From the NCBI RefSeq assembly GCF_003697345.1, contig NZ_RFLY01000010.1:40070-104069 (forward strand): a stretch of 64,000 bases of DNA, in the 5' to 3' direction. Shown here in pieces: positions 8,701 through 41,109 of this stretch (position 1 is its first letter; each line of letters begins with the position of its first letter). Made by a program: the position numbers and the translations under genes. Below the pieces are notes generated by a model. That model had not been told where the DNA came from, did no database searches, and was given only the letters and a program-made list of their open reading frames with translations. The DNA comes from Solilutibacter pythonis. GTDB taxonomy: Bacteria; Pseudomonadota; Gammaproteobacteria; Xanthomonadales; Xanthomonadaceae.

Positions 8701-9437
8701 CCGCCCAACGCCAGCGCCCCGGTACCGGTGGCGAAGGAATTGAACCCGAGCACGGTGGAAAAATCCCCCTGCGCCTGGGATTGCGCGCCAACCGCGAGCG
8801 ATGCCTGGCCGGTGGCGCTGGTGCCGTAATAAATACCGTTCTTATCCGCCGCCATGAGGTTGCGGTAGGTGTCGTTGGCCCGAGCACCGGTCAAGCCGAA
8901 ATAAGGCTCCAGTGTGCTATTGGTGATCTCCGCGATCTTGCGCGCATCGACCGTATCGTCGCTACCGATGGCAATACCGGAGTTGCCGGTGACAACGACA
9001 TTGTTGCCCACGGCCACCGATTGGGAAACGGTAACGTAGTTTACCGAACCGATCACGGTGACTTGTTCAAGCGGGTCACCGGTCGTACCAACGTACGAAC
9101 CCTGATAGCAGACGCCACTCCTGCGAACCGTGGAAGTGGCCAGCGGGGTGGATCCATGCCAGTTGCAGTCGTCGCCCACATCGCTGCTTTTCTCTTTCAG
9201 CAACGGGATACTGGACACTGGCGTGACCGTCTGCGCCCAAGCGACACCGCCACCGGCCAGCCCACAGAAAAGAAGTAGGGCGGGCACCATCGCCCGGCAG
9301 AGAGGCGTCATCAGTGTCAGACATTGACGCTTCTCAACCACTGCGCCAGAGCCTCCCATATGCCCCGTCGCCAGTTCGGAGGCGACGACCATCGCGCCTA
9401 ATTCACGGCTCCATACGAGACGATATATCTTGTTCAC
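2703..9437 (-). CDS. trimeric autotransporter adhesin (YadA/Hia-like), 2244 aa
   Basis: The N-terminus has the extended signal peptide region MNKIYRLVWSRELGAMVVASELA. The passenger has many Ylhead/neck/stalk repeats (SVALG, NSTAVG, DAVNGSQLY, AVNLSQL). The C-terminal YadA membrane anchor ends ...YKAQASGNTAKDWGFSAGMGVQW. Confidence 0.9.
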   Translation of the reverse strand: MNKIYRLVWSRELGAMVVASELATGHMGGSGAVVEKRQCLTLMTPLCRAMVPALLLFCGLAGGGVAWAQTVTPVSSIPLLKEKSSDVGDDCNWHGSTPLATSTVRRSGVCYQGSYVGTTGDPLEQVTVIGSVNYVTVSQSVAVGNNVVVTGNSGIAIGSDDTVDARKIAEITNSTLEPYFGLTGARANDTYRNLMAADKNGIYYGTSATGQASLAVGAQSQAQGDFSTVLGFNSFATGTGALALGGSAIASKTGSVALGTGATTGTDAADIDTAVIGGRTFTGFAGTVGDSGMQVSVGAAGYERQVKNVAAGALTAASTDAVNGSQLYAVANTLGSGQMHYYSVRSSVTGVGSNYDNDGASGVDAIAVGSSAGSSGARSISMGYGASAGGEKSIAIGARDNSGINAKAEAGNSIALGSGANASASAAGGIAIGSRRHVNNEGGDELLNDMNSGARVYAINGIAIGSGSVSGKSGVVVPSEADFRTIAIGDLANVQGTQSMGVGAGIVIGVGSKNSSAVGFSSAVGRTALGAISYGSVDSGTAIGANAQVLQGGNYSTAVGARAVVAPNVINAIAMGGAANTPQAGTSTSANRGAYAAANNSVALGVSSRVNAGATSGVAIGDSSVTTGANAIAIGKGAQAIAGNTIAIGTGNQVSGANSGAIGDPNTVKGSGSYALGNNNTIAQDNTFVVGNGVTATQANSVVLGNASADRAATAVSSTSINGVTYNYAGVGSAANGVVSVGAAGKERQIVNVAAGQVSASSTDAVNGSQLFATNQAVSALGNRAVQYDVNTDGTVNRGSITLGSAGTGTRIGNVANGTSANDAVNLSQLETAKSDMTSKGMKFTGNDKTAGDVHRNLGETLAIQGGASSAGNYSGGNLKTVTDPTTGAINLQMADAPKFGGVTINVDGGGKITGVTAGTLSSASTDAVNGSQLYQTNQTVQNLGNTTVKALGGGSTYDPATGAVTAILNVGGKTYNSVNEAVDAVNATASAGWNLSANGDAASNVASGGTVTVQQGNNIAVTRDGTDPNKLTIATTSDLTITSVTAGNTVLNNGGVTVSGGPKGPVSLTNVGLDNGGNTITGVAAGTLSAASTDAVNGSQLYTTNQSVNNVASSLASGMGGNSTANADGTVTTVLNVGGKTYNSVNDAIGAVNATASAGWNLTAQGANGSNVAPGATVDLSSTDGNLKVTKSATDNNVTFGLNPDLTITSVTAGNTRIDTNGLTNGGTTVNSNGLTIAGGPSVTTAGIDAGNKIIGNVANGVSATDAVNLSQLNTVAATASAANERAVKYDWTDTNGNGEVDPGEVDYARVTMNPGAAATTIHNVAAGEVSATSNQAVNGSQLHATNQAVSALGNRAVQYDLNADGTVNSNSVTLNKGGTATQIHNVANGTSANDAVNLSQLETAKSDMTSKGMKFTGNDNGAGEVHRDLGQTLAIKGEAATAGSYSGGNLKTVTDPTTGAINLQMADAPKFGGVTINVDGGGKITGVTAGALSSASTDAVNGSQLYQTNQTVQKLGDTTATALGGGSTYDPATGTVTAVLNVGGKTYDNVSEAIGAVSATASAGWRLTAQGADGSNVAPGATVDLSSTDGNLKVTKSAADNNVTFGLNSDLTLTSITTGNTVMDTNGLSVDDGAGKVARYGAARVEMSDGANSTTLDANGLAVAGGPSITVSGIDAGGMPIANVGAGVNPTDAVNMSQLNAVGNLVNAGWTVLDANGNQARITPDGRVTFTGDENVTIRQTGADQEGKVEVALNRNLSVDSLTTGGTLLNANGLTIAGGPSLTVAGIDAGGQPITHVGTGINPTDAVNLAQLNAASMEVKTHYYGVNSIGGGNYDNDGATGTDAIAIGKDALASHDGSIALGNGARTTDAVATPSGTIAGVDYRYAGANPHAVLSIGAVGMERVLVNVAAGRISADSTDAVNGSQLHAAHRAVEAVDGRVTDLSGRVDGVTSNINNLANRVDASEVNIAAIQNGAAGMFQVNQPGGKAPAPTGANSAAGGSDAVASGNNSTAVGNQSVADGANSTAIGQGARATGSSSIAIGAGSTAVEDNVVSVGGIGAERRITNVAPGVNGTDAVNLNQLKGYAAGGVQYDKNPDGSVNYNSMTLNPGGTGPTLVRNVAAGVAPTDAVNVGQLKAGLSDTLNKANAYTDQRFNDLSNDVWTLRRDFRGATASAMAMAGLPQAYLPGKSMLSAGVGGYQGQYGIAVGLSGISENGTWVYKAQASGNTAKDWGFSAGMGVQW

Positions 9438-9454
9438 GGCAAATCTCCAGGTAA

Positions 9455-9560
9455 TGAAGTTAACGAATACGAGGGGAAGAGCGTCAAAGTAAAAATATGA
9501 CGCAATTTTTATTCAAGAAAAATTGAAGCAACCATCATGCCAACACCGTGACGGATGCCA
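9455..9560. promoter_or_regulatory. AT-rich putative promoter/regulatory region upstream of the adhesin gene (divergent from rpsB)
   Basis: A locally AT-rich tract (…gtcaaagtaaaaatatgacgcaatttttattcaagaaaaattgaagc…) in an otherwise ~70% GC window, immediately 5' of the adhesin start codon. Confidence 0.3.
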
Positions 9561-9881
9561 CAATTGATATGCCAACCCTCTCAGTTGCTGAACAAAATTT
9601 GAACATGTCGGCGCTCAATCCGTCCGCTGCCCACCGACCGCCATCGCCGTGTTAAATTGCCCGCCCCTGCCACGGCAGGCCGTCCACACCGCACGTCAGC
9701 GGTGAATACACACCTGCTGTTGCAACCCATGCCGGGGTGTCCTGTCACCATCCATCGATGGCCGCCGGGATCTGTCATGGAGGCCGCAGGGAGGCCCAAC
9801 CCCGGAACCACGCCCCTACCCGGGCGTCCGCCGTCCATTTCTTCCCGGCGGAGGTTCCATCACCTCTAAGGAAACCTAGCA

Positions 9882-10709
<828 letters not shown>

Positions 10710-25446: not shown

Positions 25447-28983
<3,537 letters not shown>

Positions 28984-29010: not shown

Positions 29011-29039
29011 TTGACACCCTTTCATGTAAGCCATAACTT
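29011..29039 (+). promoter_or_regulatory. candidate sigma70-type promoter of the seven-gene operon
   Basis: TTGACA (29011-29016), a 17-nt spacer, then TAACTT (29034-29039), ending 7 nt before the ATG at 29047. The ORF track's TTG 'start' at 29011 is more plausibly this -35 element. Confidence 0.35.
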
Positions 29040-29046
29040 CGCTTAC

Positions 29047-29688
29047 ATGAAAGCCTCCCGGACCCCCAGCCCCTCCACCCTGCACCAGCGCGCCTACCGC
29101 GAGCGGATGCGCCAGGCCGGGCTGGTGAAGAAGGATGTCTGGATCCGCCCGGAATACGCCGGGGAACTCACGGCCATCGAAAAACGCATGCGCGAATCCG
29201 GCCCCGAGACCGCCGCGCCCGGCCCGTGGACGGACGACGGCAACCGCTGGAGCCTTTCATCGATCCACCATGCCCTCGGCCAGACCAGCGCCGCCGGCGA
29301 TGGCCTGATCGGGCTGGAATGGGTCGCGGGCCTCGACCCCGGCCTGCATCTCACCCTGCACGAATACGGCGGCCTGTCGATGTTCATCGCCATCGGCGGC
29401 GAACAAGTGATCGCCGAATGCTGGCTGTGGCCGCTCTCGGCGGTGGCCGATCCGGCCGCCTTCAATGCCCACGTCCTGGCCACCCACAAACTACTGCCAC
29501 TATCGGCCGTCGGCATCGAGACCGTCGGAGGCGTGGCCGGCTACACCATGTTCGGCGCACTGGACGTGCGTTCCAGCCTGGCCAGCCTGATGTTCGAAAT
29601 CGAAGCGCTGGCCGGCAACGTGATCGAGGCGAGCGAAGCCTGGCTCGGCTACCTGAAACCCGAACATGCCGCCGGGGACGCATCGTGA
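29047..29688 (+). CDS. hypothetical cytoplasmic protein, YjfI-like (DUF2170-like core with an N-terminal DUF3018-like basic segment)
   Basis: 213 aa. The N-terminus …STLHQRAYRERMRQAGLVKKDVWIRPEYAGEL… resembles the short DUF3018 ribbon-like motif. The C-terminal ~130 aa (…LEWVAGLDPGLHLTLHEYGGLSMFIAIGGEQVIAECWLWPLSAV…) is followed by a PspA-like gene, as in E. coli yjfI-yjfJ. Family calls are from memory. Confidence 0.5.
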   Translation: MKASRTPSPSTLHQRAYRERMRQAGLVKKDVWIRPEYAGELTAIEKRMRESGPETAAPGPWTDDGNRWSLSSIHHALGQTSAAGDGLIGLEWVAGLDPGLHLTLHEYGGLSMFIAIGGEQVIAECWLWPLSAVADPAAFNAHVLATHKLLPLSAVGIETVGGVAGYTMFGALDVRSSLASLMFEIEALAGNVIEASEAWLGYLKPEHAAGDAS

Positions 29689-30359
29689 GCCCGCTGCGCG
29701 AGTTGTTCGAACGCTTGCAGGCCGAAGTCGACCAGATCGAGAAAACCCTGCGCGGCCAGGCCGCCGAACGCATGCTGGACGAGGAAATCCGCGAAATCGA
29801 CACAGCCCTGCGCGACTGGCGAAACGAAGCCGCGGCCACCAAGGCGCGCATCCTCACCACCGCCGAACGCGAGAAATCGCTATCGGCCGAGATCCGCGTG
29901 CTGGAGAGCGAGGCGATCGCCGCACTGCAAGCGCGACGCAAGCGCGACGCCACCGAAATCGCCGGCGACATCGCCCGGCGCGAAGCCGCCCGCGACGACG
30001 AGCGGCAGGCGCTCAGGCAACTGCGCCAGCACCAGCGCGCCATGCTGCGCGTCATCGAACAGGGCGAACACAAGCAGCGCCGGCTGAAACATCAATTCGA
30101 TACCCTGCGCGCCAGCGAAATCCTGCAACGCGCGCAAGCTGCGGTGGCGCGCCGCCAGCCCGGTGACGCGCCGCACCCGGAAAGCGCGGTAGCCTCGGTC
30201 AAACGCGCCCGCGCGGCCAAGCAAGAGGGGACGAAAACGCCACGCAAGCCCGCCACGACACACACCAGCGCCGCCGACGCCGTGCTGGCGCGCCTACGCG
30301 CCCGCGCCGACGCCGCCCCCGCAAGCCCCGCCCGCAAGCCCACCGGGAAACACCCATGA
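29685..30359 (+). CDS. PspA/IM30-family-like coiled-coil protein (YjfJ-like)
   Basis: 224-aa entirely helical, charged-heptad sequence (…LRELFERLQAEVDQIEKTLRGQAAERMLDEEIREIDTALRDW…). GTG start overlaps the upstream stop (GTGA). The C-terminal tail is low-complexity and Ala/Pro/Lys-rich. Confidence 0.5.
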   Translation: MSPLRELFERLQAEVDQIEKTLRGQAAERMLDEEIREIDTALRDWRNEAAATKARILTTAEREKSLSAEIRVLESEAIAALQARRKRDATEIAGDIARREAARDDERQALRQLRQHQRAMLRVIEQGEHKQRRLKHQFDTLRASEILQRAQAAVARRQPGDAPHPESAVASVKRARAAKQEGTKTPRKPATTHTSAADAVLARLRARADAAPASPARKPTGKHP

Positions 30360-30970
30360 ACGCCTTTCTACAAACCACGCTGACCTTCCCCACCGTGCTG
30401 TGGAGCGTGCTGTTCGCGTTCTGCGCGATCTACTGGCTGCTGGCCGCCTTCGGCATCCTCGACCTGGATTTCGGCGATGCCGAACCGCCCGATTCCACCG
30501 CCGCCACCGGCGTGCTGGCGCGCTTCGGGCTGGGCGGCGTGCCGCTGATGGTGGCACTGGCGCTGGTGACGTTCTTCGGCTGGATCATCAGTTACTTCGT
30601 GCAACTGCTGCTGCTCGGCCAGTTGTCCGGCGCGCTGCGGCTGGCCGGCGGCATCGTCACCGCCGTACTGGCCCTGGCCCCGGCGGTACTGGCAAGCTCG
30701 CTACTGCTGCGCCCGCTGCGAAAATTCATCGCCCGGCTGCGTCCCGCCGTCCCGCCCTCGCTGCTTGGCCGCGTCGGCACCGTCACCACCCCGCGAGTGG
30801 ACGAAAAAGACGGCATGGCCAAGTTCGACGACGGCGGCGCCGGCCTGCGCCTGCAAGTACGCGCCAGGGCGCCCGACACGTTCAAGCGCGGAGACCGCGT
30901 GGTGCTGCTGGAATACCGCGACGCCGACAACACCTGGCGGGTGATTTCCGAGGCCCGCTTCAACCGCTGA
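30356..30970 (+). CDS. NfeD/YqiJ-like inner membrane protein (TM region plus C-terminal OB-fold)
   Basis: 204 aa with 3-4 TM helices followed by …GRVGTVTTPRVDEKDGMAKFDDGGAGLRLQVRAR…GDRVVLLEYRDADNTWRV…, an NfeD-type beta-barrel. ATG overlaps the upstream stop. It sits directly upstream of a flotillin gene, like E. coli yqiJ-yqiK. Confidence 0.6.
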   Translation: MNAFLQTTLTFPTVLWSVLFAFCAIYWLLAAFGILDLDFGDAEPPDSTAATGVLARFGLGGVPLMVALALVTFFGWIISYFVQLLLLGQLSGALRLAGGIVTAVLALAPAVLASSLLLRPLRKFIARLRPAVPPSLLGRVGTVTTPRVDEKDGMAKFDDGGAGLRLQVRARAPDTFKRGDRVVLLEYRDADNTWRVISEARFNR

Positions 30971-31028
30971 CCGATTCGTTCCTCCCCCTCACCGGATGCC
31001 CCGCATCCGCCTTCAAGGAGTTGTGCAA

Positions 31029-32972
31029 ATGACACTGGAAATGATCCTTCCGTTCCTGGTCGGGCTTGGCGTCCTGATCATCCTGATATTCGGCCTGATC
31101 GTCATCTTCAAGGCGTTCTATCTCAAGGTCGAGCAAGGCACCGCGCTGATCGTCAACGACATGAGCGCCAAGCCCAAGGTGCATTTCACCGGCGCGCTGA
31201 TCATCCCGGTGCTCTACAAGGCCGAAGTGATGCGGATCAGCCTCATCACCCTCCAGGTCGACCGCCGCGGCAAGGAGGGCCTGATCTGCCGCGACAACAT
31301 GCGCGCCGATATCACCGTGGCCTATTACCTGCGCGTCAACGAAACCACCGAGGACGTGCTGAAGGTGGCCAAGGCCGTCGGCGTCGACCGCGCCTCCGAC
31401 CGCCATGCGGTGGACGAACTCTTCAACGCCAAGTTCTCCGAAGCGCTGAAAACCGTCGGCAAGAAGTTCGAGTTCATCGAACTGTTCGAGAAACGCGACG
31501 AATTCCGCGACGAGATCGTCAAGGTCATCGGCAAGGACCTGAACGGCTACGTGCTGGAGGATGTCGCCATCGACTACCTGGAACAGACGCCGAAGAACCT
31601 GCTCGACCCGAGCAACATCCTCGATGCCGAAGGCATCCGCAAGATCACCGAGCTGACCGCGACGCAGAACATCATCACCAACGAACTGGCGCAGAACGAA
31701 CGCCTGGCGATCACCAAGAAGAACGTCGAGACCCGCGAAGCCACCCTGGCGCTGGAACGCCAGCAGGCCGAGGCCGAAGCACGCCAGAAACGCGAGATCG
31801 AAACCATCCAGGCCCGCGAGTCCGCCGAAACCGAGAAGGTCAAGGAAGAACAGCGGCTGTTGGCCGAACAGGCGCGACTCGAAGCCGAGGAGAAGATCCA
31901 GATCCGCGACCAGGAGCTGCAACGCCAGGTGGAAGTGGCCGAGCAGAACCGCCGCCGCGCGGTGGGTATCGAAGCCGAGCGCGTCACCCGCGCGACCAAA
32001 ATGGAAGCCGTCACCACCGACCGCGAAGTCAAGTTGCAGGAAGTCGAACGCGACAAGGCGGTCGAGCAGGGCGTGATGGACGTGGCCAACATCACCCGCG
32101 AGCGCATCGCCATCGACAAGACCGTGGCGATGGAGGAAGAGCGCATCAACGAAGTGCGCGAAGTCTCCGCCGCCGACCGCGCCAAACAAGTGCGCGTGCT
32201 GGAAGCCGAAGCCTCCGCGCAGGAAGCGCTGGTGCGCGAGATCAAGGCCGCCGAGGCCGGCGAAACCGCCGCCAAGCACCGCGCGGTGGAAATGACCACG
32301 CTGGCGCAGGCCGAATTCGACGCCGCCACCCGCCAGGCCGACGCCAAGAAAGCGCTGGCCGAGGGCGTCAAGGCCGAGCGGGCCGCGCCGGGCCTGGCCG
32401 AAGCATTGGTCAAGGAAGCCGGCGCCACCGCCATCGAGAAGGTCGGCGCGGCCGAGGCGCGTGTGATCGAGGCCAAGGCCGAGGCCCAATACAAGCAAGG
32501 CAACGCCGATGCCCGCGTGCTGGCCGAGCGCATGGCCGCCGAGGCCGAGGGCGCCTCGAAGATGGGCGATGCCCAGGCGCACGCCACCGCGCGCAAGATG
32601 GCGGCGGAGGCCGAAGGGCTGGTCGCCAAGTTCGAAGCGATGGGCAAGATGAGCGACGAGGCGCGCAGCCACGAGGAATACCGCATGGCGCTGCAAACCA
32701 GCCTGGAGCAGGCGCTGGCGCAGATCGAGGCCGGCAAGGAAATCTCGCGAGAGAACGCCGAGGTCATCGCCACCGCGCTGCGCAACGCGCGCATCGACCT
32801 GGTGGGTGGCGAGGGCGGCATGTTCGACTCGCTCTCGCGCGCCATCTCGCTGGGCAAGTCGGTGGAAGGCTTCGCCGCCAAAAGCCCGCTGGTGCAAGAG
32901 CTGATGCAGCGCTACCTCGGCGTCAGGCACGACGCCGAGTCCGCGCCGCTGGCGATGGCGCGGAAGGAATAA
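31029..32972 (+). CDS. flotillin / SPFH (band-7) family protein, YqiK-like, 647 aa
   Basis: N-terminal TM helix (MTLEMILPFLVGLGVLIILIFGLIVIF), an SPFH domain (…TALIVNDMSAKPKVHFTGALIIPVLYKAEVMRISL…), and a very long Ala/Glu/Arg-rich coiled-coil flotillin tail. Confidence 0.85.
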   Translation: MTLEMILPFLVGLGVLIILIFGLIVIFKAFYLKVEQGTALIVNDMSAKPKVHFTGALIIPVLYKAEVMRISLITLQVDRRGKEGLICRDNMRADITVAYYLRVNETTEDVLKVAKAVGVDRASDRHAVDELFNAKFSEALKTVGKKFEFIELFEKRDEFRDEIVKVIGKDLNGYVLEDVAIDYLEQTPKNLLDPSNILDAEGIRKITELTATQNIITNELAQNERLAITKKNVETREATLALERQQAEAEARQKREIETIQARESAETEKVKEEQRLLAEQARLEAEEKIQIRDQELQRQVEVAEQNRRRAVGIEAERVTRATKMEAVTTDREVKLQEVERDKAVEQGVMDVANITRERIAIDKTVAMEEERINEVREVSAADRAKQVRVLEAEASAQEALVREIKAAEAGETAAKHRAVEMTTLAQAEFDAATRQADAKKALAEGVKAERAAPGLAEALVKEAGATAIEKVGAAEARVIEAKAEAQYKQGNADARVLAERMAAEAEGASKMGDAQAHATARKMAAEAEGLVAKFEAMGKMSDEARSHEEYRMALQTSLEQALAQIEAGKEISRENAEVIATALRNARIDLVGGEGGMFDSLSRAISLGKSVEGFAAKSPLVQELMQRYLGVRHDAESAPLAMARKE

Positions 32973-33044
32973 ATCGCGCCCCCGGCCCGTCCCCCGCACG
33001 GTGGACGGGCCACCCATCCAAGCCAGCACACACAGGCCAAGCCG

Positions 33045-36000
33045 ATGACCGATTTCCCCGCCGAACACGCGCCAACCCCCACCGTCGATCAGGCCGTCGC
33101 CGAGGGCGGCGCCTACGAGGTGCTGAAAAAACGCCTCGAAACCCAGGGCGAACGCCTGCGGCAGACCGCGGAAACGCTCAACCAGGAGCGTCTGGCCGAG
33201 TTCGGTGACAGCCGCATGGCGCTAGCCGGGCGCTTCCGCATCCGCAGCGAGAACAACTGCGTGGGCCGCGACATCGTGCAGGTCGGCGACCTGCTGCTGT
33301 TCGGCTTCAACGTCTTCATCGGCCTCAAGACCGCCACCACGCTGCACGACGTTTTCGGCCTCTACCGGCTGGTGGACACCGACCAGGGCCACGACGTCGA
33401 ACCGGTGGATTTCGCCGGCACCTTCCTCTCCGAGCCGACCTTCGTCCGCGATTTCGACGAGTTGTACGCCTACTACAAACACGCCCGCCTGCTGCAACTG
33501 GTGGTGCGCGAAGGCAAGCTCCTGGCCGCCTTCCAGATCGGCGAGCGCAGCACCGACATGCGGGTGTTCCGCTGGTCGATCGCCGCCAGCGGCGAGGTGA
33601 GCTACATCGACGCGCGCGGCGAGCGCGACATCGCCCTGCCCGCGCCGTTCGATTTCGAGTGGCGGCGCGCCGGCCGCGAGATGGAGGTCAGCGGGCGCTT
33701 CCCGCACCTCAACATCCTCGACACGCTGTTCGTCGACACCACCGGCGGCGACCTCACCATCAAGATCGAGAACAACACCGAAACCGGCAAGGGCATCTTC
33801 GCCGAGCCGGTGGAGGACACCACCCAATCGATCGACGACGCCCGCATCGAGTTCGCCCACGTCGGCTCGCTGATCCTGCTGAAGGTGCTGCCATACCGCG
33901 AAAGCGAATGGCGCGGGCTGGTCTACAACACCCTGACCCGCAAGGTGACGCGCATCGACGCCATCGTGCAAGCCTGCGTACAGTTGCCCGAAGACCACGG
34001 CATCATCTTCCCCGGCGGCTCCTACCTGCAAAACGGCGAATACAAGGCGTTCGACGCCACCATGCGCGGCATGCAGTTCAAGCGCGCGATCCGCTCGCCC
34101 AACGGCGAGGACGTGCTCTATGTCTTCTACGAACGCGAAAGCGGACTGGCCGCGCTGTTCGTCTACAACCTGATCCAGCGCGGCCTGCAAAACCCGGTCT
34201 TCGCCCACGGCTACGCGCGGCTGCCCGATGGCCGCATGGTGCTGTTCCACGCCGAGAACAACGAGCCGACCCGCGTCCACCAGATGCAGCTCTGGCTGAC
34301 GCCCTTCGCCAGCGACGAATACGCCGCCGCCACGCCCCCCGGCAACAGCTTCATGGGCCGGCTCGGCAATGCCGAACTGGTGCGCGGCATCTCCAACCTC
34401 TACGACCTGGCCCGCGCCATCGATGCCCCCGAGGTCTCCGCCCAGCGCTACCTGCTGCTGACCGAACAGACCCGGCGGCTGTTCGACCAACACCACTGGA
34501 TCGACGACACTCACTGCCACGGCCTGTCCAGCCTGCTGCACGAGATCAGCGCGACCGGCGAATCGGTGCTGGACGAATTCGAGAAAGTCGAATCGATCCG
34601 CGCCCAGTCCGATGCGGCGATGAGCGAAGCGCACGCCGAACAGCGCCGGCTGCTGGGCCGCTTGCAGCCGGACTCGTGGAGCCGCGTCGAGGAATTCGTC
34701 GAAGCGCTGAATGCGATCACCACCCAGCGCGGCCACCTGCTCACCATCCGCGAATACCGCTACATCGATACCGCCGCCATCGACCGGATGGCCGGCGAAT
34801 TGCGCGAGGCGCATGCCCGCATCGGCACGGCCACCGGCGAATTCCTCGCCGGCGACAAAGCCCTGGCCCCGCTCAACGACCGCCTCCAGCAGCTCGACGC
34901 CGCCGCGCAAAAGGCCGACACCGCGCGCCTGCTCGGCGAGGAAGTGCAGGCGATGAACGCGATGTCCACCGATCTCAACATGCTCTCCGAGCTGATGGCG
35001 AGCCTCAAGGTGGATGACGCCAACCAACGCGCCCGCGTGGTAGAGGCGATCTCCGGCCTCTATGCCCGGCTCAACCAGGCCCGCGCGCGCGCCGAACAAA
35101 AACACCGCACGCTCGGCGCCAGCGAGGCGGTCGCGCAATTCGGCGCGCAATTCGCGCTGTTCGGCCAATCCATCGCCAGCGCGCTCGGCATGGCCAACTC
35201 CCCGGAACGCGCCGACGAACAGCTCTCGCGGCTCATGGTGCAGTTGGAGGAACTGGAAGGCCAGTTCGGCGAACACGAGCAGTTTCTCGGTGACATCCTC
35301 GCCAAGCGCGAGGAATTGCTGGAAACCTTCGAGACGCACAAACAGGCCCTGCTGGACGAACGCCAACGCAAGGCGCAATCGGTGCTGGACGCCGCCAACC
35401 GCATCCTCGACGGGCTGGCCAAACGCACCGAACGCTTCGACGCCCCGGACGCGCTCAACGCCTTTTTCGCCACCGACCCGCTGGTGCTGAAGCTGCGCGA
35501 GCTATCCGAGCGCCTGCGCGAATTAAAAGACCCGGTCAAGGCCGATGACGTTGAAGCCCGGCTCAAGTCCACCCGCGACCAAGCGGTACGCGTACTGCGC
35601 GACCGCAACGACCTGTTCGAGGACGGCGGCAACGTCATCCGCATGGGCCGCCACCGTTTCAACGTCAACCCCCAGCCGCTCGACCTCACCGTGCTGCCGC
35701 GCGGCGAGCACCTCGCCGTACACCTCACCGGCACCGATTACATGCAGCCGCTTGAGGACGATGCGCTCGACGCGCTCCGCCCGTTCTGGCACGTCACGCT
35801 GGATTCGGAATCGCCCGAGGTCTATCGCGGCGAATACCTGGCCGCCGAGATCATGGCGGCGGCCCGCGCGGGCCGCGATGGCCTGGATGACGAACGCCTG
35901 CTGCAAGCCGCCGCCGCCCCGGACGAACTCGCCGCCCTGGTGCGCGAATTCGCCGCGCCACGCTACCGGGAAGGCTACGAAAAGGGCATCCACGACCACG

Positions 36001-38327
36001 ATGCCGCACGCATCCTCGGCGCCCTGCTGCCCCTTGAGCGCGGCGCGGGCACACTGATCCACCCGCCGCTGGCGCGTGCGTTGGGCGCCTTGTTCTGGCA
36101 CCACATCGGCGGCGGCCAGCAGCTCTGGCGCGAGCGCATCGTCAATGCGGCGGCGATGCGCCGATTGTTCGGCCGCGATGACGGCTTCAACGAAGCCATC
36201 GACCAGTTGGCCGGCGAAATCGCCGCATTCCTCGACGACCACGGCATCGAACACCAGACAGGCAGCACCCGCCAGAGCGCCGGCTGGCTGGCCGACGAAC
36301 TGGCCGATGGCGAAACCCACCTCGGCTTCAGCCGGCAGTCCGAACAACTCGCGCGGGCATTGACCGCACGCTTGGACAACGCCGGCTCGCTGGCCGCCTT
36401 CCGCCAATCGCTGGCCACACTGGAGAACCCGGGCGAACGCTGGCGGCTGATGCTGCACTGGCTGAACGCCCTCGCCGCGCAGGACGAACACGCCACGCTG
36501 GCGCGCTTCGCACCGGAAGCCGCCGCGCTGAAACTGATCGGCGAGAGCGTGCCCCACCGTATCCACGACGCCGCACTGGAAGCCGAGATCGACGGCCTGC
36601 TCGGGGAACACCCGCGCATCGGCGAAGGCCGGCTGCGTTTGTCCATCGACGAATTCCGCCAGCGCCTCGGCCATCATCGTGAAGCGTTCGTGCCCGCCTT
36701 CCACCGCTACCAGAAACTGCGGCAACAGGTCATCGCCGATCAACGCGAACGCCTGCGTCTGTCCGAATACCAGGCCCGCCCGCTGACGTCGTTCGTGCGC
36801 AACCGGCTGATCAACGACATCTACCTGCCGATCATCGGCGACAACCTGGCCAAGCAGATGGGCACGGCCGGCGAGTCCAAGCGCAGCGACCTGATGGGAC
36901 TGCTGATGCTGATCTCGCCGCCCGGCTACGGCAAGACCACGCTGATGGAATACGTCGCCAACCGTCTGGGCCTGGTCTTCATGAAGATCAACGGCCCGGC
37001 GCTGGGGCACGAGGTGCGCTCGCTCGACCCCGCGCAAGCGCCGGACGCCACCTCACGGCGGGAACTGGAAAAACTCAACTTGGCGCTGGAAATGGGCAAC
37101 AACGTGATGTTGTACGTCGACGACATCCAGCACACCCATCCCGAATTCCTACAGAAATTCATCTCGCTCACCGACGGCACTCGCCGCATCGAGGGCGTCT
37201 GGCGGGGTCGCACCCGTACCTACGACATGCGCGGGCGCAAGTTCGCGGTGGTGATGGCCGGCAACCCCTATACCGAATCCGGCGAAGTGTTCCGCATCCC
37301 CGACATGCTGGCCAACCGCGCCGACATCTACAACCTGGGCGACGTGCTGGACGGCATGGAGGACGCCTTCCTGTCGAGCTATGTCGAAAACAGCCTGACC
37401 TCCAACCCCGTGCTGGCCCCGCTCGCCACCCGCGACCTCAAGGACCTCCACGTACTTGTGGACAAGGCGCTGGGCAAGGAGGTTTCCACCAGCACGCTTT
37501 CCCACGCCTATGGCGCGGCCGAGATCAACGACATCACCGCCACGCTGGAAAAGCTGATCGCGGTGCGGCAGGTGATCTACCGGGTCAACCAGCAATACAT
37601 CGCCAGCGCCGCGCAGGCCGACCAATACCGCACCGAACCCCCGTTCAAGTTGCAGGGCAGCTACCGCAACATGAACAAGCTGGCCGAGAAAATCGCCCCG
37701 GTGATGAACGACGCCGAGTTGCAGCAACTCATCTCCGACCACTACCTCGGCGAATCGCAATTGCTCACCACCGGCGCGGAAGAAAACCTGCTGAAACTGG
37801 GCGAACTGCGCGGCACCCTGGATGCCGGAGAAACCGCGCGCTGGGCGCAGATCAAGGCCGACTTCCTCCGCAACAAGGCGATGGGCGCGGACGATGCCGA
37901 CATCGGCGGCCGCGTGGTGGCGCAACTGGCCGACATCGCCGGCGGGCTGCAAACGCTGAAACCCACATCGCCCGTGCAGACCGAAGCCGCGCCCTGGGCC
38001 GAACTGCTCGCCAGCCTGCACGCCATCGGCCAGCGCGGCGCATCGGACGAGGCCCGGCTCGCCGACCTGCCCGACGCGCTCGCCCGGCGCATCGACCCGC
38101 TGCTGTCCAGCGTGGCCGATGCGCAGACGCGGCAAACCCAGCTCAACGAATCCCTGCTGCGCCTGGCCGACGCCCTGCGCGAAGGGCTGCTGCGCCCGCC
38201 CACCGCCGCACGCCCCGGGAAACCGGCGCCACGCGCCAAGAACCCCGCGCTGGAAAAACTCGACCGCGAACTCGGCAAGGTGAACTTCCAACGCCACCGC
38301 CCCGCGGACAAACCCGACCCGGCATGA
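33045..38327 (+). CDS. very large (1760 aa) hypothetical protein with a single AAA+ (MoxR/dynein-related AAA_5-like) ATPase module near residue ~1290
   Basis: Walker A …LISPPGYGKTTLMEY… (nt ~36924), Walker B …VMLYVDDIQ…, and an AAA_5-like sensor …FAVVMAGNPYTESGEVFRIPDMLANRADIY…. The ~1250-aa N-terminal region and the ~300-aa Ala/Leu-rich C-terminal region have no motif I recognise. 72 bp downstream of the flotillin gene. Confidence 0.8.
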   Translation: MTDFPAEHAPTPTVDQAVAEGGAYEVLKKRLETQGERLRQTAETLNQERLAEFGDSRMALAGRFRIRSENNCVGRDIVQVGDLLLFGFNVFIGLKTATTLHDVFGLYRLVDTDQGHDVEPVDFAGTFLSEPTFVRDFDELYAYYKHARLLQLVVREGKLLAAFQIGERSTDMRVFRWSIAASGEVSYIDARGERDIALPAPFDFEWRRAGREMEVSGRFPHLNILDTLFVDTTGGDLTIKIENNTETGKGIFAEPVEDTTQSIDDARIEFAHVGSLILLKVLPYRESEWRGLVYNTLTRKVTRIDAIVQACVQLPEDHGIIFPGGSYLQNGEYKAFDATMRGMQFKRAIRSPNGEDVLYVFYERESGLAALFVYNLIQRGLQNPVFAHGYARLPDGRMVLFHAENNEPTRVHQMQLWLTPFASDEYAAATPPGNSFMGRLGNAELVRGISNLYDLARAIDAPEVSAQRYLLLTEQTRRLFDQHHWIDDTHCHGLSSLLHEISATGESVLDEFEKVESIRAQSDAAMSEAHAEQRRLLGRLQPDSWSRVEEFVEALNAITTQRGHLLTIREYRYIDTAAIDRMAGELREAHARIGTATGEFLAGDKALAPLNDRLQQLDAAAQKADTARLLGEEVQAMNAMSTDLNMLSELMASLKVDDANQRARVVEAISGLYARLNQARARAEQKHRTLGASEAVAQFGAQFALFGQSIASALGMANSPERADEQLSRLMVQLEELEGQFGEHEQFLGDILAKREELLETFETHKQALLDERQRKAQSVLDAANRILDGLAKRTERFDAPDALNAFFATDPLVLKLRELSERLRELKDPVKADDVEARLKSTRDQAVRVLRDRNDLFEDGGNVIRMGRHRFNVNPQPLDLTVLPRGEHLAVHLTGTDYMQPLEDDALDALRPFWHVTLDSESPEVYRGEYLAAEIMAAARAGRDGLDDERLLQAAAAPDELAALVREFAAPRYREGYEKGIHDHDAARILGALLPLERGAGTLIHPPLARALGALFWHHIGGGQQLWRERIVNAAAMRRLFGRDDGFNEAIDQLAGEIAAFLDDHGIEHQTGSTRQSAGWLADELADGETHLGFSRQSEQLARALTARLDNAGSLAAFRQSLATLENPGERWRLMLHWLNALAAQDEHATLARFAPEAAALKLIGESVPHRIHDAALEAEIDGLLGEHPRIGEGRLRLSIDEFRQRLGHHREAFVPAFHRYQKLRQQVIADQRERLRLSEYQARPLTSFVRNRLINDIYLPIIGDNLAKQMGTAGESKRSDLMGLLMLISPPGYGKTTLMEYVANRLGLVFMKINGPALGHEVRSLDPAQAPDATSRRELEKLNLALEMGNNVMLYVDDIQHTHPEFLQKFISLTDGTRRIEGVWRGRTRTYDMRGRKFAVVMAGNPYTESGEVFRIPDMLANRADIYNLGDVLDGMEDAFLSSYVENSLTSNPVLAPLATRDLKDLHVLVDKALGKEVSTSTLSHAYGAAEINDITATLEKLIAVRQVIYRVNQQYIASAAQADQYRTEPPFKLQGSYRNMNKLAEKIAPVMNDAELQQLISDHYLGESQLLTTGAEENLLKLGELRGTLDAGETARWAQIKADFLRNKAMGADDADIGGRVVAQLADIAGGLQTLKPTSPVQTEAAPWAELLASLHAIGQRGASDEARLADLPDALARRIDPLLSSVADAQTRQTQLNESLLRLADALREGLLRPPTAARPGKPAPRAKNPALEKLDRELGKVNFQRHRPADKPDPA

Positions 38328-38962
38328 CCACCGCCCAGGCCGAATCGCTGCTCGAACGCGCCCGCCAAGTGCGAGCCGCCCAGGCCGCGTTCATCGCCGG
38401 GCCGTCGCCGACGGCGCGCATCATCGCCCTGTTCGACGACATCCGGCTGGCCTTCATCGCCACCGACAAAGTGGCGCTCGGCCGCCGCGCCGGCTGGCTG
38501 GGCAGGCTGCTCGGGCGCGACATCGACATCCAGGCCGAAGCCGAACTGCTGCGTGCGCAGGGGCCGCTGCTGGTGCATCGTGCCGACGAACTGGCGCGGG
38601 AATGGGACTCGCACTTGTCCCGGCTGGAAGCGCAATGCGATGCCGTGACCGCCATGCAAAGCGAGCTGGACACCGCCCTGGGCCAGACGCAAACCGCCGC
38701 CGCCGACGCCATCCGGCAACGCCTGCAACAAATGCGCCTGCTGTTCGACCTGAGCGCCGCGCAAAACACCGCCCTGCGCGCGCGGCACCGACAACTCGGC
38801 CGCCGCTTCGCCGCCATCCGCGCCGGCCTGTTGCCCATGCTGGCGCAAACCGGCATTGTGGACGCCGCCCACCGCGACCAGCGCCTGTATGCCGATGCCA
38901 ACGACGCACTCCAATCGCTGGAACGACGCCTCACCGACACCGCCAACGGGAACACGCCATGA
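38324..38962 (+). CDS. hypothetical helical protein (212 aa)
   Basis: ATG overlaps the stop of the 1760-aa ORF (ATGA). Ala/Arg/Leu-rich predicted helical or coiled-coil protein with no recognisable motif. Confidence 0.6.
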   Translation: MTTAQAESLLERARQVRAAQAAFIAGPSPTARIIALFDDIRLAFIATDKVALGRRAGWLGRLLGRDIDIQAEAELLRAQGPLLVHRADELAREWDSHLSRLEAQCDAVTAMQSELDTALGQTQTAAADAIRQRLQQMRLLFDLSAAQNTALRARHRQLGRRFAAIRAGLLPMLAQTGIVDAAHRDQRLYADANDALQSLERRLTDTANGNTP

Positions 38963-40044
38963 ACCAGGGACAAGACCTCGCCACCTTGCCAGACCATAAG
39001 TCGCTGAAGCAACTGGGCCTCACCGAAGCCGACCTGCCACGCATCGCCGAAGCCGCCAAGCCCCTGGCCGACATCAGGCCCGCCAACCTGCACCGCTACG
39101 GCGGCGAAGCGGCCACCCGCACCACCGGTTTCTCCACCCGCTTGCTCGACAAGGTGCGCAACACCGATCTGGACGCCTCCGGCGACAAGCTGGGCGAAGT
39201 GGTCAAGATCGCCCGCGGCCTGAACCTGGACGCCTTCGCCAACCGCTCCAAACTCCCGATCATCGGCCCCCTGATCGACAAGCTGAAGGCCAGCCGAGAC
39301 GATCTGATCCAGAAATACAGCACCACCAACGCGCAGATCGACCAACTGATGCGCGAGGTCGGCCAGACCCAGGCAAGGCAGTCGGAACGCGTGCGCGAAT
39401 ACGAGCAGATGCACGAGATCGTCCGCGAGGAGCACCGCGAACTTGGCATCCACGTCGCCGCCGGCCGCCAACGGCTGACGGAACTCCATGCCGAACTCTC
39501 GGCCCTCGACGGACAGGACGACCCCGAATCGCGGATGCGCCGCGGCGAGCTTGATACCGCCCTGCGCGTGCTGGACAAGCGCGTCTCCGACCTGCATCTG
39601 CTACAGCACGCCACCGAACAAACCCTGCCGATGATCCGGCTGATCCAGGCCAACGCCCTCCAGTTGATCGAGAAATTCGGCGCGGTGCGCGACATCACCC
39701 TACCGATGTGGCGCAACCAGTTCGCCATCCAGCTATCGCTGGCCGACCAGAAGAACGCCGTGCGACTGGCCGACGCCATCGACGAAGCCAGCAACGAGCT
39801 GATGCGCCGCAATGCCGAACTGATGCACCAGACCTCGGTGGACACGGCCCGCGCCAACCAGCGCGGCGTGCTCGACATCGAAACATTGCGCATGGTCAAC
39901 GACAAGCTGATCCAGACCGTGGAGGAAGTCCGCCAGATCCACCGCGAGGGCATGGCCCAGCGCCGCCAGGCCAGCGAAGAGATCGACCGCATGCGCGAGG
40001 ACGTGCAAAAACGCCTGGCCGCCACCGCCGCCGATCCGGCCTGA
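38959..40044 (+). CDS. TelA-like toxic anion resistance family protein (361 aa)
   Basis: …LHRYGGEAATRTTGFSTRLLDKVRNTDLDASGDKLGEVVKIARGLNLDAF… matches the conserved TelA/KlaB N-terminal block as I remember it. The remainder is a long coiled coil. ATG overlaps the upstream stop (ATGA). Confidence 0.65.
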   Translation: MNQGQDLATLPDHKSLKQLGLTEADLPRIAEAAKPLADIRPANLHRYGGEAATRTTGFSTRLLDKVRNTDLDASGDKLGEVVKIARGLNLDAFANRSKLPIIGPLIDKLKASRDDLIQKYSTTNAQIDQLMREVGQTQARQSERVREYEQMHEIVREEHRELGIHVAAGRQRLTELHAELSALDGQDDPESRMRRGELDTALRVLDKRVSDLHLLQHATEQTLPMIRLIQANALQLIEKFGAVRDITLPMWRNQFAIQLSLADQKNAVRLADAIDEASNELMRRNAELMHQTSVDTARANQRGVLDIETLRMVNDKLIQTVEEVRQIHREGMAQRRQASEEIDRMREDVQKRLAATAADPA

Positions 40045-40155
40045 GCGCGGCCGCCGGCCCGGCATGGCGGCACGTCCCGCCTCCGCCGTATGGGGGCGTC
40101 GCCCCCCATCCGCTAAAATCCATCCTCACTCCAAGCGCCGCAGGTTCCATCGCGC

Positions 40156-41109
<954 letters not shown>

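Follow-up and report, generated by a model that had tools for sequence, protein, structure and literature searches.

We analyzed a block of seven genes that Lysobacter (Solilutibacter) pythonis carries between dnaE and accA, within a 64-kb stretch of DNA whose full length is referred to as the window. The genes, designated g1 to g7, all lie on the plus strand and extend from position 29047 to position 40044. This arrangement had been described in an earlier reading of the letters of the window (the sequence-only reading), and calls of open reading frames (ORFs) bore out its coordinates. The identities proposed there for the products, namely DUF2170/YjfI, PspA, YqiJ-like protein, flotillin, AAA+ protein and TelA, were upheld by profile, BLAST and hhalign matches. 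That reading knew of no characterized system with this composition. However, g1-g5 are homologous to BacA, BacB, BacC, BacD and BacE of Pseudomonas aeruginosa, are arranged in the same order, and correspond to an operon class described by Ravi et al. (2024; PMC11237479). The genes are as follows.

29047-29688, plus strand: g1, DUF2170/BacA-like protein, 213 amino acids; ATG start at 29047 supported by homology
29685-30359, plus strand: g2, PspA-like protein, 224 amino acids; GTG start overlapping the g1 stop codon
30356-30970, plus strand: g3, YqiJ-like membrane protein, 204 amino acids
31029-32972, plus strand: g4, YqiK-like flotillin, 647 amino acids; AAGGAG Shine-Dalgarno sequence 8 nt upstream
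33045-38327, plus strand: g5, AAA+ ATPase, 1760 amino acids
38324-38962, plus strand: g6, small helical protein, 212 amino acids
38959-40044, plus strand: g7, TelA protein, 361 amino acids

The P. aeruginosa genes PA3732-PA3729 were named bac by Macé (2008; PMC2587700). The PspA-like protein PA3731 becomes more abundant in biofilms and upon hyperosmotic shock, and a PA3731 mutant shows defects in biofilm formation, swarming, rhamnolipid and virulence (PMC2587700). Wallart (2024) extended the operon to six co-transcribed genes, bacABCDEF (PA3732-PA3727), in strain PA14, and the solved structure of BacA revealed a CesT-like fold (PMC10948618). In a bacA::Tn mutant the levels of BacB-F were 6- to 13.5-fold increased, and a strong BacA-BacB interaction was mentioned by the authors as unpublished (PMC10948618). 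The bac operon shares its gene order with g1-g5 of the window; negative control by the first gene and paired boxes with a CATG core, present in the Pseudomonas loci retrieved, are further points of likeness.

The class described by Ravi et al. combines CesT/Tir-PspA, a TM-band-7-flotillin, a novel AAA+ protein with coiled coil and beta-propeller, and YqiJ/YuaF, for which an analogy to ESCRT-III/Vps4 and ATP-dependent membrane remodeling were proposed (PMC11237479). Optional PLD genes and shortened versions without PspA are noted there as well, so that the likeness to g1-g5 covers composition, PspA-less forms and PLD genes. The difference is that TelA has no occurrence in that text, the retrieved passages of which are also without the g6/TelA module, an N-terminal domain of DUF2170 proteins or an operator. 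Searches of the literature for DUF3686, PA3728, and TelA together with flotillin returned nothing beyond PMC2587700, PMC10948618 and PMC11237479. Of the novelty assumed for the block, the composition of g1-g5 therefore drops out, whereas the TelA end stands, being found neither in the bac papers nor in Ravi et al.; the TelA gene pair at the operon end is new relative to the described operon type.

The homologs of g2, g3 and g4 in Escherichia coli, YjfJ, YqiJ and YqiK, are encoded at two separate loci, yjfIJ(KLMC) and yqiJK, the first of which also codes for YjfI, annotated as DUF2170 like g1. Unlike the block in the window, these loci contain neither a DUF3686 ATPase nor TelA. The g2 protein matched Pfam PspA_IM30 with 43.3 bits (cut-off 33.9) and E. 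coli YjfJ with 26% identity (E 6e-9), by which it is assigned as a PspA/IM30 protein (ESCRT-III superfamily) of the YjfJ/BacB type. For g3, pairwise BLAST found no similarity to YqiJ and Pfam NfeD gave only E 0.27, but a profile of the g3 family (79 members) matched E. coli YqiJ in hhalign (88.9%, E 2.4e-6). Together with three hydrophobic, transmembrane (TM) segments in the hydropathy plot, this classes g3 as a YqiJ/DUF1449-type membrane protein, with a predicted C-terminal NfeD-like beta domain behind the three TM segments. The g4 protein gave zero Pfam matches, Band_7 included, and aligned in BLASTP with E. coli YqiK at 29% identity over 470 amino acids (E 1e-40). Its hydropathy plot contains a single N-terminal TM segment, and g4 is assigned as a YqiK-type flotillin with an N-terminal TM segment, an SPFH region and a long Ala/Glu-rich coiled coil. 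Searches of PDB sequences with g2, g4 and g7 yielded nothing useful.

The block is bordered by the dnaE stop at 28983 and the accA start at 40156; a relative with Pfam annotation served to identify the flanks as dnaE and accA-tilS. The two genes had been taken to be normally adjacent, as they are in E. coli, where dnaE lies directly beside accA. Four junctions within the block are exact stop/start overlaps at the positions first reported (GTGA at 29685; ATGA at 30356, 38324 and 38959), and the other two are gaps of 58 nt (g3-g4) and 72 nt (g4-g5). The overlapping codons suggest translational coupling; the stoichiometric co-expression that had been deduced from them does not follow. A generic scan found no terminator-like site on the plus strand inside the block, and no Rfam family reached its gathering score on either strand of the whole window.

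The g4-g5 spacer contains the following element.

32984-33011, plus strand: GC-rich hairpin with a 9-bp stem, GGCCCGUCC/GGACGGGCC, without U tract

With a minimum free energy of -30.2 kcal/mol and a z-score of -2.1, this hairpin might possibly act as an mRNA processing or stability element setting the flotillin:ATPase ratio. In the closest relative (L004), a gene for a PIN7-domain protein (9323-9970) is inserted at the g4-g5 junction.

Distribution and composition of related loci

An alignment of diverse g5 representatives, scanned against one genome per species, matched at least 598 stretches, of which the best 80 loci were analyzed; with four more loci obtained by exact look-up and the window itself, 85 loci were counted. 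Iterated profiles of the seven proteins were run against the ORFs called in these loci. Pseudomonas is represented by L013, L016, L017 and L020, and the P. aeruginosa locus is not among them. The loci had the following compositions.

Genes 1-2-3-4-5: 34 of 85 loci
Genes 3-4-5: 24 of 85 loci
Genes 3-4-5-6-7: 13 of 85 loci
All seven genes: 6 of 85 loci
Other patterns, mostly contigs cut short: 8 of 85 loci

The order 3-4-5 was kept in 77 of the 85 loci, and the DUF2170-PspA dyad precedes it in about half. According to these patterns, the YqiJ-like/flotillin/ATPase triad is the invariant core and the dyad an add-on. Since the same order recurs in dozens of genomes, the gene arrangement is not due to chance. 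Family-wide, more than 5,300 g5 homologs were found, including an L. pythonis entry at NCBI that is 100% identical to g5, and residues 1-1200 of g5 as query gave 449 clusters (50% identity) at E ≤ 1e-30.

All seven genes are present in the window, in Lysobacteraceae NML120232, in a metagenome-assembled genome of Lysobacter, in Thermomonas and in two Pseudoxanthomonas loci. The neighborhood search called for by the sequence-only reading thus revealed that g1-g5 co-occur well beyond this lineage and the complete set in a few of its members, and the position between dnaE and accA proved to be the exception, being shared by two of the 85 loci, the window and its closest relative. The block of Xanthomonas and Stenotrophomonas is located between trpF and a LysR-trpBA cluster, and that of Luteimonas viscosa between ubiB and a gene for a TonB receptor. 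We regard the location between dnaE and accA as a local rearrangement that is functionally unlinked to replication. A horizontally acquired island was also considered for the block and rejected: its GC content (0.61-0.71) is native and does not differ from that of the flanks, the nearest relatives of g5 are from Lysobacteraceae, and mobility genes are absent at the borders.

Plasmids carry g5 homologs in 13 of 72,556 records, mostly megaplasmids, chromids or mislabeled chromosomes, and no g5 homolog was found in phage genomes. Three of the plasmid loci differ from the common types. On megaplasmid pQBR103 (L088, NC_009444.1 85112-97641), fusion of the operon with a yjfJKLMC-like polyamine module has given a hybrid in the order PspA, rhomboid, DUF2491, DUF350, DUF1190, glutathionylspermidine synthase-like protein, hypothetical protein, SPFH protein and DUF3686 ATPase; it joins two PspA operon classes that are kept apart by Ravi et al. 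(PMC11237479). A megaplasmid of Deinococcus actinosclerus (L089, CP029777.1) carries an apparent 3-4-5 triad, consisting of two size-matched hypothetical ORFs followed by the ATPase gene. This ATPase is 58% identical to g5 and as near to it as those of Pseudomonas, which suggests a transfer between phyla. On a Hymenobacter plasmid (L091, NZ_CP010056.1 127734-137047), a gene annotated as 'molecular chaperone Tir' replaces that for DUF2170 and is followed by genes for PspA, DUF1449, a hypothetical protein and the ATPase. This Bacteroidota version of the operon has a gene for a LexA-family regulator upstream of it, in divergent orientation.

The first gene and a putative paired operator

The g1 protein has homologs in P. 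aeruginosa (BacA) and E. coli (YjfI). It matched Pfam DUF2170 with 125 bits and the crystal structure of P. aeruginosa BacA (PDB 8q8o) with E 1.6e-32 over residues 66-205. Because its score with the NCBIfam BacA model (213.3 bits) is under the equivalog cut-off of 300, g1 is regarded as a BacA homolog and not as an equivalog. The protein starts with a basic N-terminal domain of about 50-60 amino acids, followed by the DUF2170 domain with a chaperone fold of the CesT/type III secretion system (T3SS) kind. Within the N-terminal domain, R18, R22, G25, K28, K29 and W32 are invariant. Members of this domain family matched the NCBIfam family UrfF, 'plasmid repression protein F' (19 of 22), and the Pfam MazE-like antitoxin family (17 of 22), which would fit a putative DNA-binding domain. 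E. coli YjfI, which has 133 amino acids, is too short to contain it.

The 146-amino-acid chain of the BacA crystal aligns solely to residues 66-205 of g1, i.e., to the DUF2170 part. BacA has been treated as a 16-kDa protein (PMC2587700), and the term 'DNA-binding' does not occur in the paper on its structure (PMC10948618). In all Pseudomonas loci that were fetched (L013, L016, L017 and L020), the bacA frame runs about 60 codons further upstream and codes for the conserved basic domain. From this comparison we infer that an outdated gene model probably caused the N-terminal domain to be overlooked in the published P. aeruginosa BacA. The sigma-54 site published as 'upstream of pA3732' may then be located inside the true coding region.

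The region in front of g1 contains a candidate promoter and two putative operator boxes.

29011-29039, plus strand: candidate sigma-70-type promoter with -35 region TTGACA (29011-29016), 17-nt spacer and -10 region TAACTT (29034-29039)
29020-29029, no strand assigned: putative operator box 1, TTTCATGTAA, identical at 9 of 10 positions to the palindromic consensus TTACATGTAA
29043-29052, no strand assigned: putative operator box 2, TTACATGAAA, with one mismatch to TTACATGTAA; contains the g1 start codon (29047-29049)

The promoter is the one that had been proposed from the sequence, TTGACA-17-TAACTT, and its geometry recurs in L004, L009 and L041 and, in a shifted form, in 18 other loci. The TTG at position 29011 belongs to the -35 hexamer and is not the start of g1. 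A generic promoter scan did not call this site, because its -10 region agrees with the consensus at only three of six positions. The ATG of g1 follows 7 nt 3' of the -10 region, and therefore the g1 mRNA is probably leaderless; no Shine-Dalgarno sequence precedes g1.

Boxes 1 and 2 together form a perfect inverted repeat of 13 nt (29019-29031/29041-29053). At least two boxes are present just upstream of g1 in 27 of the 29 loci with a long-form g1 and in none of the 11 with a short-form g1. The box-bearing loci span Lysobacteraceae, Pseudomonas, Comamonadaceae, Gilliamella, Woeseiaceae and Sedimenticola. The 1.97 Mb of DNA from the loci contain 26 box pairs with a spacing of 20-26 nt, at most one of them away from a g1 promoter. 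In most taxa, a TTGAca-like -35 region is located between the boxes and a TAgTCT/TATAAT-like -10 region after box 2, with the ATG 6-8 nt further on. In the seven-gene loci of Lysobacteraceae, the promoter is shifted by one box, so that the -35 region lies 5' of box 1, the -10 region in the spacer and the ATG within box 2. With either layout, the mRNA is expected to be leaderless and repression to work by occlusion of the promoter.

The co-occurrence of the boxes with the N-terminal domain of g1 suggests that g1 directly autorepresses the operon. By the same comparison, BacA-type proteins would be repressor-chaperone fusions and as such the direct cause of the reported negative control. The combination of a paired operator with a candidate repressor domain is new in this analysis. 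An alternative function of the inverted repeat at 29019-29053 as the dnaE terminator was rejected, as the repeat is AT-rich, lacks a T tract and has its halves kept as separate palindromic boxes in distant taxa.

Loci with short DUF2170 proteins are organized differently. In L063, L071, L076 and L082 (Marinobacter, Cellvibrionaceae), the DUF2170-PspA dyad is oriented divergently from the 3-4-5 triad, the DUF2170 protein has 134-163 amino acids without the N-terminal domain, and the paired boxes are absent. With the short protein and no boxes, these loci must be regulated differently. Upstream of the short-form DUF2170 genes of L049, L058 and L068 (Methylomonas, Ideonella, Aquabacterium), a single motif, TGACATGTTA, is located at a distance of 71-76 nt and may be the site of another regulator.

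The ATPase and the genes behind it

The g5 protein has the following parts.

Residues 38-484: DUF3686 (Pfam, 636 bits)
Residues 605-688: DUF7902 coiled coil (Pfam, 78 bits)
Between the coiled coil and the AAA+ module: helical middle region
Residues about 1280-1500: AAA+ module, MoxR-like (AAA_5, 29.8 bits, profile positions 2-125 of 139)
Motifs: Walker A GYGKT (1294-1298), Walker B DD (1359-1360), sensor-1 N1407, R1425
After the AAA+ module: conserved C-terminal region

The DUF3686 region is a beta-propeller according to Ravi et al. (2024; PMC11237479). Across 24 diverse g5 homologs, Walker A, Walker B (DD), the sensor-1 Asn and one Arg are invariant. In an AlphaFold2 model of residues 1181-1760 (pLDDT 82), a beta-hairpin is located between the Walker B and sensor-1 strands. 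A Foldseek search of the PDB with this model ranked the MoxR-family proteins CbbQ2 (6l1q), NorQ (9qh4/9qh8) and cso-CbbQ first, followed by MCM and RuvB. The MoxR-family matches had E values of 5e-7 to 2e-6 and TM-scores of 0.53-0.60 on the target, and 6l1q, 9qh4, 9qh8 and 5c3c were among the ten best. The modeled ATPase module therewith resembles those of MoxR-type proteins (CbbQ/NorQ) and not Vps4.

The sequence-only reading had assigned the ATPase a Vps4-like role in remodeling the PspA polymer. Given the MoxR-like fold and the confinement of p97/VCP sequence matches to the Walker A region, 'Vps4-like' can stand as a functional analogy only. The likeness to ESCRT-III/Vps4 consists in an AAA+ ATPase tied to a membrane-remodeling polymer; Vps4 is a classical-clade ATPase with an MIT domain, whereas g5 is predicted to be MoxR-like with a pre-sensor-1 hairpin and has no MIT domain among its Pfam matches. 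Within the MoxR family (CbbQ, NorQ, RavA), which provides the best structural matches and whose AAA_5 profile covers the whole core, g5 differs by its N-terminal region of about 1,250 amino acids comprising propeller, coiled coil and helical part, by its C-terminal extension, and by DD rather than DE in Walker B.

The g6 protein matched no family, and neither g6 nor g7 has a rhomboid or PLD domain. Both lack hydrophobic segments in the hydropathy plot and are hence expected to be soluble. A word-based search retrieved only eight homologs of the fast-evolving g6, whose family was defined by position after g5. The genes in this position in Xanthomonas, Stenotrophomonas and Luteimonas are homologous and share the motifs GWLGRLLGRD and IRxxLLPxWxQ. 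AlphaFold2 predicted an all-helical protein with two long helices (pLDDT 79), and fold searches of the PDB gave generic helical bundles and no specific match. In profile-profile comparisons by hhalign, the g6 family aligned with the TelA family at E 9e-4 (probability 23%) and E 5.5e-4 (probability 30%), colinearly through the IRDxxxPxW region; controls of g6 against the PspA and flotillin families gave E 0.056 and 0.98. One g6 homolog touches the TelA profile (E 6e-4). The g6 protein is possibly a short, very divergent TelA paralog.

The g7 protein is a full-length, high-scoring member of the TelA/KlaB family (PF05816; Pfam TelA, 241.5 bits) and is 60-78% identical to its counterparts at other Lysobacteraceae loci. 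Its context differs in that it is coupled behind a flotillin-associated AAA+ gene and a gene for a small helical partner. Genes known from Ter and Kla clusters, TerB/TerC/TerD and KlaA/KlaC, are absent, and the other six proteins matched no Ter family.

The g6/TelA pair was confined to Lysobacteraceae, where it stood immediately behind g5 in 19 of 19 cases, and TelA was missing from all 58 complete loci from outside this family. The g5/g6 and g6/g7 overlaps of the window are also present in L004, L009, L014 and L022. Elsewhere, the slot after the ATPase gene is occupied by a rhomboid gene, which overlaps the g5 stop, together with a PLD (HKD) hydrolase gene, by PLD alone or by an alpha/beta hydrolase gene; rhomboid and PLDc_2 were found in L013, L026, L037, L012, L016 and L065. 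The first gene of the slot overlaps the g5 stop (ATGA) in the window and in four loci without g6/TelA, three of which have rhomboid. Pseudomonas-type loci, with rhomboid and/or PLD (HKD) after the ATPase, thus differ from the window by this exchange and by the promoter, which in the window is shifted by one box. In Aquabacterium sp. A7-Y (L065, 15207-15920), the PLD protein encoded after the ATPase has a weak N-terminal match to Pfam EAD1 (E 8.8e-4, 20.1 bits, cut-off 24.2), which was seen at this one locus.

Proposed function and alternative explanations

We consider the block to be the form that the bac-type PspA-flotillin-AAA+ membrane-stress operon takes in Lysobacteraceae, with autorepression by g1 and an accessory slot for g6/TelA, and assign this reading a probability of about 0.6. 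The operon would be transcribed from 29011-29039 and autorepressed by the N-terminal domain of g1 at the two TTACATGTAA-like boxes, and the chaperone domain of g1 would bind g2. Membrane or osmotic stress would draw g2 to the membrane, change the occupancy of g1 and thereby derepress the operon. Such a g1-g2 partner switch would be analogous in its logic to PspA-PspF and to T3SS chaperone circuits. These steps are in part demonstrated by homology, synteny and experiment in P. aeruginosa. At the inner membrane, g3 and g4 might build an SPFH scaffold, g2 might polymerize on damaged membrane, and g5 might spend ATP to assemble, remodel, disassemble or recycle membrane scaffold structures. The g6 and g7 proteins, made in step with g5, would be lineage-specific membrane-proximal accessory or effector proteins that replace rhomboid/PLD and act with the ATPase. 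For the scaffold and for the accessory proteins, we infer these roles from the families and the gene order.

With the classical E. coli Psp system (pspF-pspABCDE), the proposed circuit has in common an effector of the PspA/ESCRT-III family and a plausible negative-feedback logic. It differs in that PspF, PspB and PspC are unmatched among the seven proteins, the promoter is sigma-70-like instead of sigma-54-dependent, and the regulator would be a repressor-chaperone fusion.

Several points weigh against our interpretation. The UrfF and MazE-like matches of the g1 N-terminal domain are weak, the domain matched no solved structure among PDB sequences, and its DNA-binding function is putative. In the work on P. 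aeruginosa, the operon is proposed to have a sigma-54 promoter and to be controlled post-transcriptionally or at the protein level rather than through a sigma-70 operator, and the increase of BacB-F in the transposon mutant could in part be polar read-out from the transposon. MoxR ATPases usually work with a VWA partner, and no VWA domain was matched in any of the seven proteins (Pfam, NCBIfam). The kinship of g6 with TelA, finally, is weak (probability 23-30%).

A more general version of this interpretation is conceivable, and we put it forward as tentative. The triad might be a general membrane platform with an exchangeable, coupled slot, controlled by a hitherto unrecognized type of Psp regulator, an antitoxin-like DNA-binding/T3SS-chaperone fusion protein that senses the free PspA homolog and directly represses the leaderless operon via the two TTACATGTAA boxes.

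It appears unlikely that the block is a biological-conflict system directed against phages or competitors, in which the propeller/AAA+ protein senses an invader or membrane damage and the swappable slot gene provides the effector on a flotillin/PspA platform. PspA was originally defined through phage stress, and EAD1 (effector-associated domain 1) is known from NTPase-based conflict systems. The slot after the ATPase indeed varies as effector slots do, the genomic position varies as well, some copies are on megaplasmids, including the 58%-identical one of Deinococcus, and one PLD protein has the weak EAD1 match (E 8.8e-4). This match, however, is under the Pfam cut-off and comes from one locus only. 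Moreover, in PADLOC-DB 2.0 only g5 gave matches, all at noise level (E > 2e-3; range 2e-3 to 6e-3) and to coiled-coil/Walker A parts of JetC, LeoA and IetA, phage genomes have no homolog, and the block has housekeeping neighbors and native composition. The operon is widely kept within families and not strain-variable, and the known phenotypes concern biofilm, osmotic stress and virulence (PMC2587700). The antiphage function that the sequence-only reading had considered accordingly has no direct support.

Slightly less probable still is that two merely adjacent units are present, a bac-type operon g1-g5 and an independent TelA pair g6-g7 for resistance to toxic anions or envelope antibiotics. 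TelA proteins are active elsewhere too, for instance at plasmid kla/tel loci and in Firmicutes, and the lack of TelA in 58 of 58 complete loci outside Lysobacteraceae would agree with independence. But if the pair were independent, its consistent occurrence directly after g5, in four chromosomal contexts and with or without g1-g2, would be unexpected, as would the conserved g5/g6 and g6/g7 overlaps in the window and four other loci. No promoter-like or terminator-like site lies between g5 and g6, and the missing TerB/C/D and KlaA/C genes also speak against a resistance cluster. That g5 is a DNA-repair ATPase and the block lies beside dnaE for a reason of replication or repair is highly improbable: the Pfam text for DUF3686 ('ATPase involved in DNA repair') points in this direction, as do the product name 'DNA repair ATPase' at NCBI and MCM and RuvB among the structural matches, but no published basis for the name or paper on DUF3686 was found, dnaE is adjacent in two loci only, the genes that invariably accompany g5 code for a flotillin and a YqiJ-like membrane protein, and the MCM/RuvB matches, outranked by MoxR-family proteins, reflect the shared AAA+ core.

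PspA/ESCRT-III proteins and flotillin scaffolds are central to the maintenance of bacterial membranes, and their regulation and remodeling are poorly known outside E. coli and Bacillus. The operon family analyzed here is widespread, with at least 598 matched stretches and 449 g5 clusters, and affects biofilm formation and virulence in P. aeruginosa. It is known but mechanistically unsolved, and the locus in L. pythonis is a variant distinguished by the TelA pair, the shifted promoter and the unusual chromosomal position. The operator and the candidate DNA-binding domain on a BacA-type protein offer a concrete regulatory mechanism, and they suggest that structural and promoter work on P. aeruginosa BacA was based on a truncated gene model. 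If the fusion-repressor interpretation is true, the DNA-binding third is missing from the published 16-kDa BacA, the construct that was crystallized, and the sigma-54 control proposed for the operon needs to be re-examined. An ATPase that is MoxR-like rather than Vps4-like would change the mechanistic precedents that can be applied. TelA, a protein whose mechanism has long been unknown, gains a context by its linkage to flotillin-AAA+ genes across a bacterial family.

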